DNA from: a virus
Lineage: Duplodnaviria; Heunggongvirae; Uroviricota; Caudoviricetes
IMG/VR virus record: IMGVR_UViG_2698536454_000005
Coordinates: 1 to 5,991 of that record
Length of the DNA: 5,991 nucleotides
Strand: one strand, 5' to 3'
Notes under the pieces: model-generated
The model's input: only the letters and a program-made list of their open reading frames with translations
Databases searched by the model: none
Told to the model about the DNA's origin: nothing
Part shown: positions 663-5,991 of the stretch, piece after piece
Layout of the letters: each line of letters opens with the position of its first letter
How positions within the stretch are numbered: position 1 is the stretch's first letter
Translations under genes and position numbers: made by a program

Positions 663-995
663 ATGCATCGTATAGACACGAAAACCGCGCAGAAGGATAA
701 GTTCGGCGCGGGTAAGAACGGTTTTACCCGTGGTAACCCCCAGACCGGCACACCTGCCACCGATCTGGATGATGACTACTTTGACATGTTGCAGGAAGAA
801 CTCTGCAGCGTGGTGGAGGCATCCGGTGCCAGCCTGGAGAAGGGGCGGCATGACCAGCTGCTTACCGCGCTTCGTGCGCTGCTGTTAAGCCGCAAGAATC
901 CGTTTGGCGATATCAAATCTGATGGCACGGTGAAAACGGCTCTCGAAAACCTTGGTTTGGGAGAAGATCAGTTCAACACTATTGTTTCAGAATAA
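663..995 (+). CDS. Tail-fibre protein, constant N-terminal part (Sc-like), ending in a 9-codon stub after a crossover-site copy; truncated in this arrangement
   Basis: ATG 663 is preceded by GGAG with 6-nt spacing. The N-terminus [21 protein letters not shown] is what I recall from Mu-like/e14-like fibre N-termini. Codons ENLGLGE (946-966) are encoded by the crossover core that also begins both variable cassettes. After the core the frame runs only DQFNTIVSE then TAA. Confidence 0.75.
940..965 (+). other. Site A: 26-bp invertase crossover site inside the fibre constant-part codons (ctctcgaaaacc tt ggtttgggagaa)
   Basis: Near-palindromic 12+2+12 layout. The right half plus next base is identical to 2510-2522 and to the reverse complement of 5912-5924. 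Central dinucleotide tt at 952-953. Same orientation as site B. Confidence 0.6.
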
Positions 996-1046
996 TCACT
1001 TAACCCCATTTATGTCGGTTGAGGTTATAAGTCACGGAGACCAGAT

Positions 1047-1391
1047 ATGTCCTTAAAGTATGCACATGAAAAATTTCATACTGCAGTACTTACTCTTGCG
1101 GGCCATGGAAGTATTCAAGAACGCTTGATTAATTCGTATGTTTTTAGCCTTGGGCATCTTAAAACAGCCGATGATATTCCAAATGCCTTACAAAGCAGGT
1201 TCGATGAATTATGTAAGGAACTGACTAAGTTTGATGCCACTGGCGATGAGGGGCGAGTTCAAGCAACAGTATCAAAACTTAACGATTTCGAGATCAATAA
1301 ACTGATCGAAGATATTGTCAGTCTTAACGATGATATTTGCATGAAATTGGCTCTGACGGATGAGACTTACCAAGACATACACCAAAGTTAA
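1047..1391 (+). CDS. Hypothetical small acidic protein (114 aa), AT-rich cargo gene of unknown function
   Basis: ATG 1047 preceded by GGAG 1036-1039 with 7-nt spacing. A hand-counted 100-bp sample at 1047-1146 is about 35% GC, against about 55% for 701-800. Hand count gives 19 Asp+Glu versus 11 Lys+Arg. No motif I can assign. Confidence 0.65.
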   Translation: MSLKYAHEKFHTAVLTLAGHGSIQERLINSYVFSLGHLKTADDIPNALQSRFDELCKELTKFDATGDEGRVQATVSKLNDFEINKLIEDIVSLNDDICMKLALTDETYQDIHQS

Positions 1392-1418
1392 TTGATTAAA
1401 TTCAAAAAGTTAACGTTC

Positions 1419-1441
1419 AACCAGCCAGTTTTTGGCTGGTT
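1419..1441. terminator. Putative bidirectional intrinsic terminator between the convergent 114-aa and 70-aa genes
   Basis: Perfect 9-bp stem aaccagcca (1419-1427) / tggctggtt (1433-1441) with a 5-nt loop. T-rich tract follows on the plus strand (1442-1450). On the minus strand it is followed by an A/T-rich tract containing a T5 run (complement of 1403-1407). Confidence 0.5.
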
Positions 1442-1475
1442 TATTGTCTTATAATATTCTTGCTCGAATGATGCA

Positions 1476-1688
1476 CTATTTATGATGTAATCCGGACATC
1501 AGTTCATGGACAAGATTATCTCTTTCATTGTGTTGCAACCGTAAATGCATAGCAAAAAGGTGAGCACTATCCTCATTCCTCTTCAAGCCATGCTGTTCAA
1601 GATACCCGAAAAAACGGCTTCTCTTATCCGCTATTTCCTGAGTCTGACGTGCAACATTTACCAAATTTTCTAGCGTTTTTCTTGGCAT
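1476..1688 (-). CDS. Hypothetical small His-rich protein (70 aa), cargo gene downstream of the invertase on the same strand
   Basis: ATG is the complement of 1686-1688. A perfect AGGAGG Shine-Dalgarno (complement of 1696-1701) lies 7 nt upstream. AT-rich. Seven His, no Cys. No recognisable motif. Confidence 0.65.
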   Translation of the reverse strand: MPRKTLENLVNVARQTQEIADKRSRFFGYLEQHGLKRNEDSAHLFAMHLRLQHNERDNLVHELMSGLHHK

Positions 1689-1886
1689 ACTATTTCCTCC
1701 TGAAATTGTTGTAATTCACTAGGATATTCATTTTAATTTGTATCATTTAGTACCAAAACCGCTATCAATTAACAAAGCCATCGTTGTGGTTTACCTTGCA
1801 GCCGTTTTTTGTCATTGACTCTATGTGAAAATAATGAATCATCATGAGATTGGCTCACACGTTCTTGAATTCGACGAGCTGTGTCT

Positions 1887-2441
1887 TTATTTATCTCCTG
1901 CCGGAAACCTCTGATACAAAGTCGATACGCCAACATCATAGATAATCGCAACTTTCTGGCGCGGAACTCCTGATGCAATTAATCGTCCGGCTTGTGCCCA
2001 TTGTTCTGGTGTAAGTTTGGGACGACGTCCACCAATTCGTCCCTGTGCGCGAGCAGCTTCCAGTCCAGCTTTTGTTCGTTCAACAATCAGTTCTCGTTCC
2101 ATTTCAGCCAGGGCCCCCATCACATGAAAGAAAAAGCGCCCCATTGGGGTACTGGTATCAATTGAATCCGTCAGACTACGAAAGTTGATGCCTCGTTCGC
2201 GCAACTCCTCCACCAGCACGACAAGATGCCGCATACTGCGCCCCAGTCGGTCCAGTTTCCAGACCACCAGCGTATCGCCTGCCGATAATGTCCTGAGCAG
2301 TTTTTTCAGTCCCGGCCTTTCGGACTTTGTACCGCTTATCTTGTCTTCAAAAATCAGCTCGCATCCTGCACAGTTCAGCGCATTACGTTGTAGATCTGTG
2401 TTCTGGTCATTTGTTGACACACGTACATAGCCAATAAGCAT
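1887..2441 (-). CDS. pin: Site-specific serine DNA invertase, Hin/Gin/Cin/Pin family
   Basis: Starting from the MLIGYVRVSTNDQ methionine (complement of 2439-2441) gives 184 aa. Catalytic serine lies in the RVSTNDQ context near the N-terminus. Conserved blocks LVVWKLDRLGRS and GRFFFHVMGALAEMERELI are present, with a C-terminal helix-turn-helix (GVSTLYQRFP). AGGGAG sits 7 nt upstream. The ORF-track start at 2477 adds 12 residues encoded by the inverted repeat and is probably not the real start. Confidence 0.93.
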   Translation of the reverse strand: MLIGYVRVSTNDQNTDLQRNALNCAGCELIFEDKISGTKSERPGLKKLLRTLSAGDTLVVWKLDRLGRSMRHLVVLVEELRERGINFRSLTDSIDTSTPMGRFFFHVMGALAEMERELIVERTKAGLEAARAQGRIGGRRPKLTPEQWAQAGRLIASGVPRQKVAIIYDVGVSTLYQRFPAGDK

Positions 2442-2442
2442 G

Positions 2443-2522
2443 GTAGATCTCCCTGACAAAAGCAGGAATGATGCCATTTGCTCGTTATTTCTGCATTTTC
2501 ATAAACGTTGGTTTGGGAGAAG
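2443..2522. repeat. Left inverted repeat (80 bp) of the invertible segment; contains the invertase RBS and site B
   Basis: 2443-2522 is the exact reverse complement of 5912-5991, compared base by base. Identity ends at 2523/5911. Confidence 0.9.
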
Positions 2523-2962
2523 CGGCAAAACGAAATGTGGGCAACGGGGAAAACCAAATCCCTGATATGTCTTTCTGGACGGTTACTGGTGGCAATGGAA
2601 ATTTTGTGATTCGTCAACCTGACGGGCTAATCATTCAGATGGTTACTGTAAGTATAAGCGGTCCAGTGGCGATGAATGGAATGACTGATAATGCTTATGC
2701 CATTACAGGTTCTAATAAGTCTTATATTGCCACAGCCACATTGCCCTTTGTATTTCCTAATAAGGTGCTGGGCGTTATCCCTCTGGTATCAACAACAGCT
2801 TATGGTGGTGTATCCAGTAATATTACAGGTTCATACGCGACGGCGGTTTGTTCTTTTGCCGCTGTCAGGGGGAATAATACGATTGTGTTCAAAGTCGACA
2901 AACCACTGAATGCAGCCTTTCCTTCAGATACCAGCGTCTCAGCGTTAATCATTGGACGGTAA
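2468..2962 (+). CDS. Tail-fibre C-terminal variable cassette Sv1; the first 18 codons are encoded by the inverted repeat and the cassette is not joined to the constant part in this arrangement
   Basis: The frame is continuous with the GLGE codons of the crossover core and unique sequence starts at 2523. Gly/Thr/Ser/Asn/Val-rich 146-aa tip. Stop TAA 2960-2962 is followed 2 nt later by the ATG of a tail-fibre assembly gene. Confidence 0.65.
   Translation: MMPFARYFCIFINVGLGEAAKRNVGNGENQIPDMSFWTVTGGNGNFVIRQPDGLIIQMVTVSISGPVAMNGMTDNAYAITGSNKSYIATATLPFVFPNKVLGVIPLVSTTAYGGVSSNITGSYATAVCSFAAVRGNNTIVFKVDKPLNAAFPSDTSVSALIIGR
2496..2521 (+). other. Site B: 26-bp crossover site (ttttcataaacg tt ggtttgggagaa)
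   Basis: 12+2+12 layout with central tt at 2508-2509. Resembles hix/gix-type sites as I recall them. Lies at the inner end of the left inverted repeat. Confidence 0.7.
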
Positions 2963-3978
2963 GAATGAACTCAGTATTCTTTTCACCCGCAAGTAAAAGT
3001 TTTTATCTGCAAGAATTGTTTCCAGAATATGAGGATGCGGGAACGCTTCCTGATGATGTTATTGAAATTACCAGAGAAACATATGAGCAATTTCTTGGGC
3101 TGCATCCAGAAGGGAAAGAAATTGGCGCTGACAGTTCAGGACGGCCAATATGGATTAATTCCCCGCCGCCTTCAAAAGAGGATGAGATGCTGGCGGCTGA
3201 AATGAAAAAGATATCTTTGGTTTCAGAAGTCAATACCTACATCAATACCCATCAGTGGCCTGGCAAAGCTGCTATTGGTCGTCTGAAAGGTTACGAGCTG
3301 GAACAATATAATTTATGGCTGGATTATCTGGACGCACTGGAACTGGTTGATACCTCCAGTGCTCCAGATATTGAATGGCCTACGCCTCCGGTAGTTCAGG
3401 CCAGATGACATCCGGCGCGGTGCTGGTATCTGTTGCAGTCACCGCGTCAATGTAATCCAGCACAGCGTTAAGCCGGGTTGTTTCTGCCTGCGTCAGCTTC
3501 CGCCCGGCCTGCAATTTCAGCTGAATCAGACTAATGGAAGCCATAGCAGCATCAATCAGTGACTGGCGCCGTACTTCTGCCGCGTCTACTGCGGCGTTAT
3601 GCTGTGCCTCAGTATCGGTCACCCATTTCTCACCATCCCATTTATCGTATGACGTTAACGGGGCGATAGTGGTTGTATTTTCAGGGTAATCACCCGGAAC
3701 TGTGATTTCTTTTGATTCTCCTGTTTCGGTGCTATAGACGATTTCACCGCGATGGTCTGGCACATATTCCCATGAGTTAAAATCTGCAGAACGGCAAATT
3801 GCATAACCAGCTTTATATGAGCCAGGAGCATCTAAACAGGAACATGCCGGGATACCAACACCCACAGCAAGATATTCAGTTGATGTGGAAATATATTCCC
3901 GTGTTTCACCATCATAATTATAAACGGTAATGTCTCCGGCCTTTGTGGCGATGAGTTCATTATTTAATACAGCTTTAC
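2508..3978. repeat. Tandem direct repeat, copy 1 (1471 bp)
   Basis: Matches 3980-5450 at an offset of 1472. Supported by identical translations of three ORF pairs and by reading the boundary regions and one ~470-nt internal stretch directly. Base 3979 matches neither flank. Confidence 0.85.
2965..3408 (+). CDS. Tail-fibre assembly chaperone (Tfa; Mu U / P2 G family) partnered with Sv1
   Basis: C-terminus DTSSAPDIEWPTPP matches the conserved Tfa C-terminal motif (compare APDVIWPELP in the other Tfa here). Coupled immediately downstream of Sv1. Confidence 0.8.
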   Translation: MNSVFFSPASKSFYLQELFPEYEDAGTLPDDVIEITRETYEQFLGLHPEGKEIGADSSGRPIWINSPPPSKEDEMLAAEMKKISLVSEVNTYINTHQWPGKAAIGRLKGYELEQYNLWLDYLDALELVDTSSAPDIEWPTPPVVQAR

Positions 3979-4000
3979 ATTGGTTTGGGAGAAGCGGCAA
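3380..4000 (-). CDS. Tail-fibre assembly chaperone (Tfa) copy whose native ATG start is replaced by the duplication junction; possibly non-functional
   Basis: Identical to the 4852-5457 product from KAVLNNELIATK onward. The native MIS start is absent and the only in-frame start is TTG at 4000, inside the crossover core. Its 3' end overlaps the convergent Tfa gene by 29 bp (3380-3408). Confidence 0.45.
   Translation of the reverse strand: MPLLPNQCKAVLNNELIATKAGDITVYNYDGETREYISTSTEYLAVGVGIPACSCLDAPGSYKAGYAICRSADFNSWEYVPDHRGEIVYSTETGESKEITVPGDYPENTTTIAPLTSYDKWDGEKWVTDTEAQHNAAVDAAEVRRQSLIDAAMASISLIQLKLQAGRKLTQAETTRLNAVLDYIDAVTATDTSTAPDVIWPELPEA
3968..3993 (+). other. Site C: hybrid junction carrying a crossover core half-site (tacagctttaca tt ggtttgggagaa)
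   Basis: The right half and central tt are identical to sites A and B. The left half is the start region of the Tfa gene and does not resemble a site half. Probably a recombination product junction rather than a functional full site. Confidence 0.5.
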
Positions 4001-4434
4001 AACGAAATGTGGGCAACGGGGAAAACCAAATCCCTGATATGTCTTTCTGGACGGTTACTGGTGGCAATGGAAATTTTGTGATTCGTCAACCTGACGGGCT
4101 AATCATTCAGATGGTTACTGTAAGTATAAGCGGTCCAGTGGCGATGAATGGAATGACTGATAATGCTTATGCCATTACAGGTTCTAATAAGTCTTATATT
4201 GCCACAGCCACATTGCCCTTTGTATTTCCTAATAAGGTGCTGGGCGTTATCCCTCTGGTATCAACAACAGCTTATGGTGGTGTATCCAGTAATATTACAG
4301 GTTCATACGCGACGGCGGTTTGTTCTTTTGCCGCTGTCAGGGGGAATAATACGATTGTGTTCAAAGTCGACAAACCACTGAATGCAGCCTTTCCTTCAGA
4401 TACCAGCGTCTCAGCGTTAATCATTGGACGGTAA
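3985..4434 (+). CDS. Duplicate Sv1 variable cassette with no start codon; expressible only if fused to the constant part at site C
   Basis: Translation identical to Sv1 from GEAAKRNVG onward. The frame is closed upstream by TGA at 3952-3954 and has no ATG. Begins at the crossover core. Confidence 0.5.
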   Translation: MGEAAKRNVGNGENQIPDMSFWTVTGGNGNFVIRQPDGLIIQMVTVSISGPVAMNGMTDNAYAITGSNKSYIATATLPFVFPNKVLGVIPLVSTTAYGGVSSNITGSYATAVCSFAAVRGNNTIVFKVDKPLNAAFPSDTSVSALIIGR

Positions 4435-4436
4435 GA

Positions 4437-4880
4437 ATGAACTCAGTATTCTTTTCACCCGCAAGTAAAAGTTTTTATCTGCAAGAATTGTTTCCAGAAT
4501 ATGAGGATGCGGGAACGCTTCCTGATGATGTTATTGAAATTACCAGAGAAACATATGAGCAATTTCTTGGGCTGCATCCAGAAGGGAAAGAAATTGGCGC
4601 TGACAGTTCAGGACGGCCAATATGGATTAATTCCCCGCCGCCTTCAAAAGAGGATGAGATGCTGGCGGCTGAAATGAAAAAGATATCTTTGGTTTCAGAA
4701 GTCAATACCTACATCAATACCCATCAGTGGCCTGGCAAAGCTGCTATTGGTCGTCTGAAAGGTTACGAGCTGGAACAATATAATTTATGGCTGGATTATC
4801 TGGACGCACTGGAACTGGTTGATACCTCCAGTGCTCCAGATATTGAATGGCCTACGCCTCCGGTAGTTCAGGCCAGATGA
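4437..4880 (+). CDS. Tail-fibre assembly chaperone (Tfa), duplicate of 2965-3408
   Basis: Translation identical to the 2965-3408 product. Confidence 0.75.
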   Translation: MNSVFFSPASKSFYLQELFPEYEDAGTLPDDVIEITRETYEQFLGLHPEGKEIGADSSGRPIWINSPPPSKEDEMLAAEMKKISLVSEVNTYINTHQWPGKAAIGRLKGYELEQYNLWLDYLDALELVDTSSAPDIEWPTPPVVQAR

Positions 4881-5457
4881 CATCCGGCGCGGTGCTGGTA
4901 TCTGTTGCAGTCACCGCGTCAATGTAATCCAGCACAGCGTTAAGCCGGGTTGTTTCTGCCTGCGTCAGCTTCCGCCCGGCCTGCAATTTCAGCTGAATCA
5001 GACTAATGGAAGCCATAGCAGCATCAATCAGTGACTGGCGCCGTACTTCTGCCGCGTCTACTGCGGCGTTATGCTGTGCCTCAGTATCGGTCACCCATTT
5101 CTCACCATCCCATTTATCGTATGACGTTAACGGGGCGATAGTGGTTGTATTTTCAGGGTAATCACCCGGAACTGTGATTTCTTTTGATTCTCCTGTTTCG
5201 GTGCTATAGACGATTTCACCGCGATGGTCTGGCACATATTCCCATGAGTTAAAATCTGCAGAACGGCAAATTGCATAACCAGCTTTATATGAGCCAGGAG
5301 CATCTAAACAGGAACATGCCGGGATACCAACACCCACAGCAAGATATTCAGTTGATGTGGAAATATATTCCCGTGTTTCACCATCATAATTATAAACGGT
5401 AATGTCTCCGGCCTTTGTGGCGATGAGTTCATTATTTAATACAGCTTTACTTATCAT
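4852..5457 (-). CDS. Tail-fibre assembly chaperone (Tfa; TfaE / Mu U' type) partnered with Sv2
   Basis: ATG (complement of 5455-5457) overlaps the Sv2 stop in an ATGA arrangement. C-terminus TSTAPDVIWPELPEA carries the conserved Tfa motif. Confidence 0.85.
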   Translation of the reverse strand: MISKAVLNNELIATKAGDITVYNYDGETREYISTSTEYLAVGVGIPACSCLDAPGSYKAGYAICRSADFNSWEYVPDHRGEIVYSTETGESKEITVPGDYPENTTTIAPLTSYDKWDGEKWVTDTEAQHNAAVDAAEVRRQSLIDAAMASISLIQLKLQAGRKLTQAETTRLNAVLDYIDAVTATDTSTAPDVIWPELPEA

Positions 5458-5966
5458 GCAGCCCTCACAATATAATTAAAGGCGATGTTACGGGAGCGGG
5501 TTTCAGATGCTGTGCGAACTGAGCGAGATGCGTCGAATGTCCAGTTATAAGCGCCATAACCCTCAATAATTTCGGCTTCCTTTAGACCTGTAGATAATAC
5601 TTGCCCATGTTGACTAAATGGCCCTGAACTAAGTACGTCTCTAAAAAGCTGGGTACGCCCAAAAGAACCAACAATATTCTGAATTGCATCATTCTGTGCA
5701 GATAATAAGTTACGACCAGAGTCAATCCCGCGCCCATCATCCCAGCCACGAATAAATTCACCGCGTAAATCTGGTAATTTTAATGTTGGGTAAGCCTTTG
5801 CCAGATTTGGGTACTTTTCAGAAGAAAATACTGCTCCGTTACATTTTAGCCACCCCGTTGGCGGAGTGGCGGAAGGCCACGGAACAGGCACACCAACGGG
5901 TAATGCCGAACCTTCTCCCAAACCAACGTTTATGAAAATGCAGAAATAACGAGCAAATGGCATCAT
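5454..5966 (-). CDS. Tail-fibre C-terminal variable cassette Sv2 (receptor-binding tip of the P2 H / Mu S / Stf type); first 18 codons encoded by the inverted repeat
   Basis: Carries conserved tail-fibre tip motifs: PWPSATPPTGWLKCNGA, YPNLAKAYP, LPDLRGEFIRGWDDGRGID and the C-terminal NIAFNYIVRAA. In frame with GLGE of the crossover core. Confidence 0.85.
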   Translation of the reverse strand: MMPFARYFCIFINVGLGEGSALPVGVPVPWPSATPPTGWLKCNGAVFSSEKYPNLAKAYPTLKLPDLRGEFIRGWDDGRGIDSGRNLLSAQNDAIQNIVGSFGRTQLFRDVLSSGPFSQHGQVLSTGLKEAEIIEGYGAYNWTFDASRSVRTASETRSRNIAFNYIVRAA

Positions 5967-5991
5967 TCCTGCTTTTGTCAGGGAGATCTAC
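5912..5991. repeat. Right inverted repeat (80 bp, cut by the window end)
   Basis: Exact reverse complement of 2443-2522. May extend beyond position 5991. Confidence 0.9.
5913..5938 (+). other. Site D: 26-bp crossover site (ttctcccaaacc aa cgtttatgaaaa), inverted relative to A, B and C
   Basis: Reverse complement of site B, with central aa at 5925-5926. Confidence 0.7.

Follow-up and report, generated by a model that had tools for sequence, protein, structure and literature searches.

A small gene family that appears to keep its place beside the attachment site in enterobacterial prophages

Introduction

In the stretch of prophage DNA analysed here an open reading frame for a protein of 70 amino acids lies downstream of the tail-fibre invertase gene pinE, and the two genes are read in the same direction. 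Does this closeness mean that the small gene takes part in inversion, or is it a gene of another kind which merely occupies that place? A preliminary description of the DNA, made from the letters alone, considered that the gene might modulate recombination or serve a cargo function. The question is not peculiar to this locus; the map of phage Mu also has a small ORF downstream of the invertase gene gin at the phage end. In the invertase systems that have been studied, Gin, Hin, Pin and Cin, the reported need is for Fis and an enhancer within the invertase gene and for nothing else. In the following "the window" is the whole stretch of 5,991 nt.

Layout of the window

The window contains the tail end of an e14-like E. 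coli prophage. On the plus strand it begins with a Mu Gp48/YmfQ baseplate gene (48-659) and the constant N-terminal part of the tail fibre StfP (663-995), followed by an orphan cargo gene for a protein of 114 aa (1047-1391, from the ORF list and RefSeq). The 70-aa ORF is convergent with the 114-aa gene; it was correctly placed at 1476-1688 on the minus strand with an ATG start, and both the ORF list and the RefSeq annotation contain it. A stable GC-rich hairpin (1419-1441) lies between the two convergent genes. On its upstream side the 70-aa ORF is separated by a spacer of 198 nt (1689-1886) from the stop codon of pinE, which begins at 1887. The pinE gene itself (1887-2441, minus strand) codes for a serine DNA invertase of 184 aa (Pfam Resolvase 1.8e-51, HTH_7 4e-13; named pinE by RefSeq), and from there to the end of the window follow the invertible cassettes for tail-fibre tips and chaperones.

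The base composition changes along this map. The GC content is 0.565 in ymfQ and the constant part of StfP (baseplate and fibre), 0.50 in pinE, 0.40 in the 70-aa ORF and 0.376 in the block 966-1886, and the 200-nt windows which cover the spacer have 0.345-0.36, in agreement with the earlier statement that the spacer is AT-rich. The composition of the 70-aa ORF is thus distinct from that of the flanking phage genes, as is found for morons.

Some junctions in the window are odd. At 965-968 the constant part of StfP is fused to the sequence that precedes the 114-aa gene, and what has been joined to StfP is the 9 codons and the stop codon with which a 343-aa cargo gene ends in canonical genomes. 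In these genomes the 343-aa gene occupies the place of the window's StfP join; the gene is absent from the window. The join was found in 0 of 5426 complete E. coli genomes and is also missing from species-representative genomes, from metagenome and viral contigs and from a gene-position index. Its position is just beyond the right half of the crossover site (940-965) and not at the 2-bp TT core of that site; for this reason the idea that Pin simply produced it from the canonical arrangement was rejected. Further to the right a unit of 1472 bp, which comprises a fibre tip, one chaperone and the greater part of another, is duplicated in tandem (2505-3978 equals 3977-5450) with a 2-nt AC overlap at the junction and one G-to-A difference between the copies. 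The window ends with 80 nt (5912-5991) that repeat 2443-2522, the stretch upstream of pinE together with the crossover site, exactly and in inverted orientation. Such an arrangement would be expected of a contig assembled from mixed inversion isomers or of a chimeric read. The join, the duplication and the inverted end may represent a strain-specific rearrangement or a chimera made during assembly or amplification. Positions 968-2507 agree with the canonical arrangement, so the 70-aa gene is unaffected by these oddities.

[quoted passage not shown] NZ_CP148395.1 (H81/H82) is an E. coli "plasmid" of 2637 bp obtained by single-cell sequencing, with pinE, the 70-aa gene and other hypothetical genes. 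It stops at the Pin crossover site (2507 in the window) and probably represents no plasmid but a contig that broke at the invertible repeat.

The protein and its family

The exact 70-aa protein is annotated by RefSeq as hypothetical (WP_001137529.1). It has a mass of 8.3 kDa, a pI of 9.4, 7 His and 0 Cys. The preliminary description called it His-rich; this is not a trait of the family, in which most of the His residues are unconserved: H33, H43 and H61 recur in 8-11 of 16 members and the remaining four in 2-3 of 16. It was right to set the protein apart from Com-like zinc fingers, since Cys is missing here and is conserved nowhere in the family.

A HMMER scan of 1.84 billion representative proteins gave five small relatives with 40-58% identity, and two profile searches of 5.8 billion proteins reached saturation at about 18 sequence clusters. 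The members come from Escherichia, Salmonella, Citrobacter, Pantoea and Scandinavium and are all called "hypothetical"; as sampled by these searches the family is a small one, found only in Enterobacterales. A narrower locus search with the family alignment returned solely the Scandinavium locus which was already in the set. When over-long start calls are trimmed the members have 67-76 residues. The homologs are 37-58% identical over 66 codons without gaps, the alignment of 16 members has no gap over 66 positions, and M1, A13, L30, A42, A46, R56, L59, V60 and L63 are invariant in it.

Nine gene sequences were compared codon by codon. The dN/dS values were 0.08-0.51 where dS was measurable, the other synonymous sites being saturated, and the differences were distributed over the three codon positions as 929/791/1484, an excess at the third position. 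Low dN/dS together with the third-position excess points to selection on the protein; judged by these comparisons the 70-aa ORF is protein-coding and under purifying selection. The view that a small protein is really encoded here, and that its gene has a strong ribosome-binding site, therefore stands, given the RefSeq annotation, the homologs and the dN/dS values.

AlphaFold predicts two long helices (3-32 and 39-68, pLDDT 82) from the single sequence and three helices (4-33, 39-48 and 53-65, pLDDT 78) from the 16-sequence alignment. In these models the product is a small, soluble, all-helical protein, predicted to be cytoplasmic. Neither the 70-aa protein nor its homologs had a significant match in Pfam, PHROG, NCBIfam or PADLOC; there was no significant PDB match, and fold searches with the 70-aa protein gave nothing above noise. 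The homology and structure search proposed in the preliminary description has thus yielded a small homologous family and an all-helical model, but no significant relation to a characterised family or fold. Neither the gene nor a detectable relative was matched, at the DNA or the protein level, in 50,697 sequenced phage records, which means that the gene has so far not been seen in any virion genome. In the searchable literature no paper contains the RefSeq accessions of the three cargo proteins (70, 114 and 343 aa).

Two specific identities were tried and discarded. An anti-sigma factor of the T4 AsiA type was suggested by phrog_1166 at E = 0.11 and by a resemblance seen by eye; 1 of 16 members matches, hhalign gave a probability of 0.7% against the AsiA sequence, and AsiA was not among the results of the PDB profile search. 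An antitoxin of a type II toxin-antitoxin system was rejected because the neighbouring gene is convergent and unconserved in other members and no partner is present in the same operon.

The block in E. coli

In complete E. coli genomes pinE and the 70-aa gene are read in one direction, the 114-aa and 343-aa genes follow in the opposite direction, and then comes the intact tmRNA gene ssrA. The 70-aa gene is present in 46 of the 5426 complete genomes, with an identity of at least 99%, and a public assembly index lists it in 4933 blocks of its collection. At least 1225 complete genomes have a pinE-like gene that spans 80% or more of the query, and partial matches number 2540. In e14 the order is stfE, pinE, mcrA and then the icdC remnant (PMC4444293). 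The many genomes with a pinE-like gene against the few with the block, together with the presence of mcrA in e14, indicate a variable cargo slot. Related prophages either have or lack the 70-aa gene at this fixed slot, again as is found for morons, and the word cargo in the preliminary description names the right category.

In strain EC1515, whose record is NZ_CP021844.1, the block closes a complete prophage of about 35 kb. The far end of this prophage carries the integrase and a canonical excisionase (phrog_2917, E = 7.7e-44), and between the ends are lambdoid early genes, an HK97-type head, a Mu-like contractile tail and invertible fibres.

The block has also been kept in less regular surroundings. 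In two loci (L003 and L008, the latter at 7248-9725) the pinE-70-114-343 block is retained and the remainder of the prophage is different. The pinE gene of L003 is truncated (115 aa) and follows a lambda-like J, Lom and a long tail fibre. The pinE gene of L008 comes immediately after gap-pgk-fba of the chromosome, a hint that a large rearrangement of the chromosome had one of its ends at the Pin crossover site.

The 114-aa and 343-aa genes (the latter at 10965-11996 in L001) form a co-directional AT-rich pair. The 114-aa gene has no family match. For the 343-aa protein the family is phrog_6191 (E = 6.8e-38), known from phages and of unknown function, and by eye one hydrophobic segment can be seen in the protein (WQKMLVIITMVGAASTCGYHYI). 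The pair is a candidate for an exclusion or defence module at the prophage end.

Homologs and attachment sites in other genera

Eleven distinct contexts outside E. coli were read, two of them cut by the contig end (L012/L013 and L028). In none of the eleven is an invertase gene found beside the family member; the only trace of one is an HTH_7 remnant about 4 kb away in L016. The invertase thus does not accompany the homologs as it would have to if the family were accessory to it. Homologs of the 114-aa or 343-aa genes were not found near any family member outside E. coli.

What recurs is the attachment site. In most contexts the family gene is the last ORF of the prophage or prophage remnant before the host genes, and wherever the boundary is visible it is the last ORF before the attachment site, marked by an icd or a tRNA-Leu fragment. 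Directly downstream of the gene there is a 50-codon 3' fragment of icd in L013, L015, L016 and L019, an attachment junction of the e14/phage-21 type, and in L014 and L021 a partial tRNA-Leu(UAA) 3' half followed by the host terminator; host genes follow after these att relics. About 75-135 nt upstream of the gene the reverse complement of a tRNA-Pro(GGG) 3' fragment is found in L014, L015, L016, L019 and L022, and at the corresponding distance in L012 that of an ssrA 3' fragment. The upstream fragments are, from their sequence, evidently fossils of earlier attachment sites. Across L012-L022, then, the family gene has a fossil core upstream and the live att core 150-350 nt downstream. In L019 a tRNA-Leu-type arm sequence is also retained between the gene and the icd fragment, so that three generations of attachment sites stand in a row. 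The enclosure of the gene between fossil and live sites and the three generations in L019 suggest that new att-int modules were repeatedly added outside older ones.

Some of the neighbourhoods have structure of their own. In L022 two tRNA-Pro 3' fragments in the same orientation (4209-4239 and 5879-5926) flank a 1.6-kb segment with a 142-aa gene, upstream of the family gene; it looks like a decayed nested integration. Genes for UmuDC, Abi and DarT-Macro occur near homologs. In L029 a DarT-domain gene followed by a Macro-domain gene (929-3230), a defence pair of the DarTG toxin-antitoxin kind, belongs to the same cargo block as the family gene and a SRAP gene.

Read over all these contexts, the terminal position next to att is kept across prophages which use different integration sites, and no partner gene is conserved with the family. 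By this comparison attachment-site sequences are its only constant companions. The 70-aa gene of E. coli has the terminal slot between pinE and ssrA, and from this its tie to pinE is read as a positional one.

Signals around the gene

A perfect Shine-Dalgarno sequence, AGGAGG, is located at 1696-1701 on the minus strand, 7 nt before the ATG, as first reported. The homologs have AGGAG or GGAGG 6-9 nt before their ATG, so that a strong ribosome-binding site is present in all members.

The promoter is less clear. Two -10-like boxes on the minus strand, TATCCT (1721-1726) and TAAAAT (1730-1735), make up a candidate promoter; the second is the hexamer pointed out earlier. A scan for two-hexamer consensus promoters gave nothing in the window nor in L014, L015, L019 and L021. 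By eye a -10-like box can be seen in all members: the Citrobacter homolog (L021) has AAAATGAATATACT at the place which matches the boxes at 1721-1735 in the window, and in other homologs the box reads TGTATAAT, GTATACT or GTAAAAT and is placed 24-35 nt ahead of the ATG. The homologs in L014 and L019 have an intrinsic terminator immediately upstream, and these copies would therefore need a promoter of their own if they are expressed. A LexA box (CTG-N10-CAG) is not recurrent upstream of the members; there are two isolated matches far upstream (in L012 and L021) and none in the window. A LexA-controlled SOS gene or antirepressor was rejected because the promoter regions of the members have no recurrent LexA box.

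In the window the gene could also be transcribed from pinE. The minus strand between the two genes was scanned without finding a terminator-like site, the RNA of the spacer folds no better than shuffled sequences (z = +0.82), and Rfam has no match to an RNA element in it. With the two genes co-directional and no terminator between them, read-through is possible, as was proposed.

The spacer does not look like an ordinary operon junction. Its 88 pinE-proximal nt (1799-1886), read on the plus strand, resemble yedL with 76-81% identity by blastn, and a pairwise alignment with the yedL 3' end gives 85% mean column identity. They correspond to the last 49 nt of the chromosomal yedL and its downstream flank (3001-3084 in L027). 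On the chromosome yedL is placed after yedK (SRAP) and before prophage debris consisting of a DUF5503 pseudogene and an integrase fragment, an adjacency seen in L027. This relic means that at least part of the spacer looks like a scar of recombination or deletion rather than an operon junction.

The stem-loop at 1419-1441, described as following the gene, was confirmed: it has 10 pairs and -18.6 kcal/mol, with z = -3.3 and 0 of 200 shuffles equally stable. On the plus strand the stem is followed by TATTGTCTT and on the minus strand by GAACGUUAAC. The T-rich tail (U-tract) on the plus-strand side suits the 114-aa gene better than the 70-aa gene. From its sequence the hairpin is likely to be a terminator which is better tailed for the plus strand, and by the same reading it is a poor intrinsic terminator for the minus strand.

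What the gene may do

The explanation we prefer, with moderate confidence, is that the 70-aa gene is a stand-alone cargo gene of the prophage end, a "moron", and that its small soluble helical protein acts by binding another protein. In E. coli its slot is at the end opposite the integrase, with the tail-fibre invertase gene pinE on one side and the attachment site at ssrA on the other, which is the position of mcrA in e14. In the lysogen the gene would be expressed from a weak promoter of its own, with a -10-like box about 30-40 nt before the ATG, or by read-through from pinE, or by both, and the AGGAGG sequence would ensure efficient translation. The protein would then act alone, a helical surface binding to a host or phage protein; its size and fold suggest such a protein binder and neither an enzyme nor a regulator that binds DNA.

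The constant closeness to att may mean more than a place for cargo. Temperate enterobacterial phages could have in this family a dedicated factor of the att-proximal region, which has been kept through switches between tRNA-Pro, ssrA, tRNA-Leu and icd as integration sites, and which controls excision or integration, or the adjacent SRAP/SOS cargo. We regard this as improbable, although the recurrent SRAP neighbour and the closeness to att could reflect a functional link; they are treated here as shared ancestry.

In a narrower form the protein would be a component of the integration or excision module, a new kind of directionality or anti-excision protein acting on the adjacent P arm. The position beside att agrees with this. 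The E. coli prophage, however, already has its canonical excisionase beside the integrase, and the family does not match excisionase profiles (E = 0.15 for 1 of 16 members). A winged helix is not predicted either, the model being all-helical. Furthermore, one family is found with unrelated att specificities, whereas known directionality factors track their integrase. Together these points make the proposal quite unlikely.

A second proposal makes the protein a partner of SOS-type cargo, especially a divergently expressed regulator or inhibitor of the SRAP/YedK-like peptidase. A SRAP/YedK-like gene is the divergent upstream neighbour of the family gene, directly or with dinI between them, in L014, L016, L019/L020, L021 and L029, and it flanks the gene in L022. 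DinI and UmuDC genes occur within the same blocks, and the relic in the window's spacer derives from the chromosomal neighbour of yedK. Against this, the SRAP gene is absent from the E. coli block, which with the 4933 listed blocks is the most widespread member of the family, and from L015, L017/L018, L024 and L028. The lack of a recurrent LexA box, with its two isolated matches, speaks against SOS control, and descent of a single prophage-end block from a common ancestor can account for the synteny. We give the proposal a low probability.

Equally doubtful is a regulator or antidote of the convergent 343-aa and 114-aa pair, the possible defence or exclusion module of E. coli. The 70-aa, 114-aa and 343-aa genes do travel together there (10 of 10 places, 46 genomes), and the phrog_6191 assignment of the 343-aa protein and its hydrophobic segment would suit such a module. 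Neither of the pair has a homolog near other family members, however; the convergent arrangement makes no operon, and PADLOC gave no match for these neighbours. In one E. coli locus (L004) the 343-aa gene is split and the 70-aa gene intact.

Behind the suggested role in recombination was the idea of an accessory or regulator of the Pin invertase: co-transcribed with pinE, it would influence how the tail-fibre segment inverts, in the manner of a directionality or enhancer-type factor. The ORF is co-directional with pinE, 198 nt downstream of it with no terminator between, and in E. coli the adjacency survives replacement or rearrangement of the prophage (L003, L008). The eleven contexts from other genera are nevertheless without an invertase gene, most E. 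coli genomes with a pinE-like gene lack the 70-aa ORF (at least 1225 against 46), and about half of the spacer is the yedL-like relic on the other strand. Nor do the studied systems leave an obvious need for another component besides Fis and the enhancer. A role of this kind is very unlikely, and the linkage to the invertase does not carry the suggestion.

That the ORF is non-functional or decaying and owes its conservation to recent spread alone, for which the near-identity of the E. coli copies and the absence of any known function or expression might be cited, is hardly credible when divergent members hold length and frame over 66 codons at saturated synonymous sites with dN/dS well below 1 and all have a strong ribosome-binding site.

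Comparison with known systems

The closest resemblance is to the morons at prophage ends such as mcrA of e14, which has the same slot between the invertase and att, opposite the integrase (order from PMC4444293). The 70-aa gene shares with morons that it is AT-rich compared to its flanks, patchy among related prophages and followed by a hairpin. It differs in that its protein has no relation in sequence or fold to McrA or to characterised moron products and in that its promoter is only a candidate.

The com-mom region of Mu offers another parallel. Like com, the 70-aa gene is a small ORF directly downstream of, and co-directional with, an invertase gene of the Gin/Pin family at a phage end. 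However, Com is a Cys4 zinc-finger translational activator whose gene is followed by mom, whereas the 70-aa protein is without Cys and no gene in the same direction follows its ORF; moreover, its homologs are found without an invertase.

In size class, solubility and helical content the protein is similar to DinI, to anti-adaptors such as IraM and to AsiA of T4, and several of its homologs sit among SOS-type cargo (dinI, umuDC, SRAP), but there is no detectable homology between these proteins and the family. TorI of KplE1 likewise comes from a small gene, which lies at attR and so at the other end from the integrase, a position like that of the 70-aa gene. The family differs from directionality factors of the TorI type in being all-helical and without a match to an excisionase profile, and in E. 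coli a xis gene is already present beside int.

What the finding means

By itself the finding matters little. It adds a small gene family under selection to the far-end cargo of e14-like and lambdoid prophages, a region known for defence and fitness genes, and it corrects a case of guilt by association, as adjacency to the invertase implies no role in inversion here. The enclosure of the gene between fossil and live att sites would be a useful marker for the switching of integration sites by phages. Were the protein found to act on incoming phages, on excision, or on SRAP or the SOS response, it would count as a new and compact modulator. Should the reading as an att-proximal factor be true, the family would represent a new class of modulators of prophage stability or of the response to DNA damage, and not a passive passenger.
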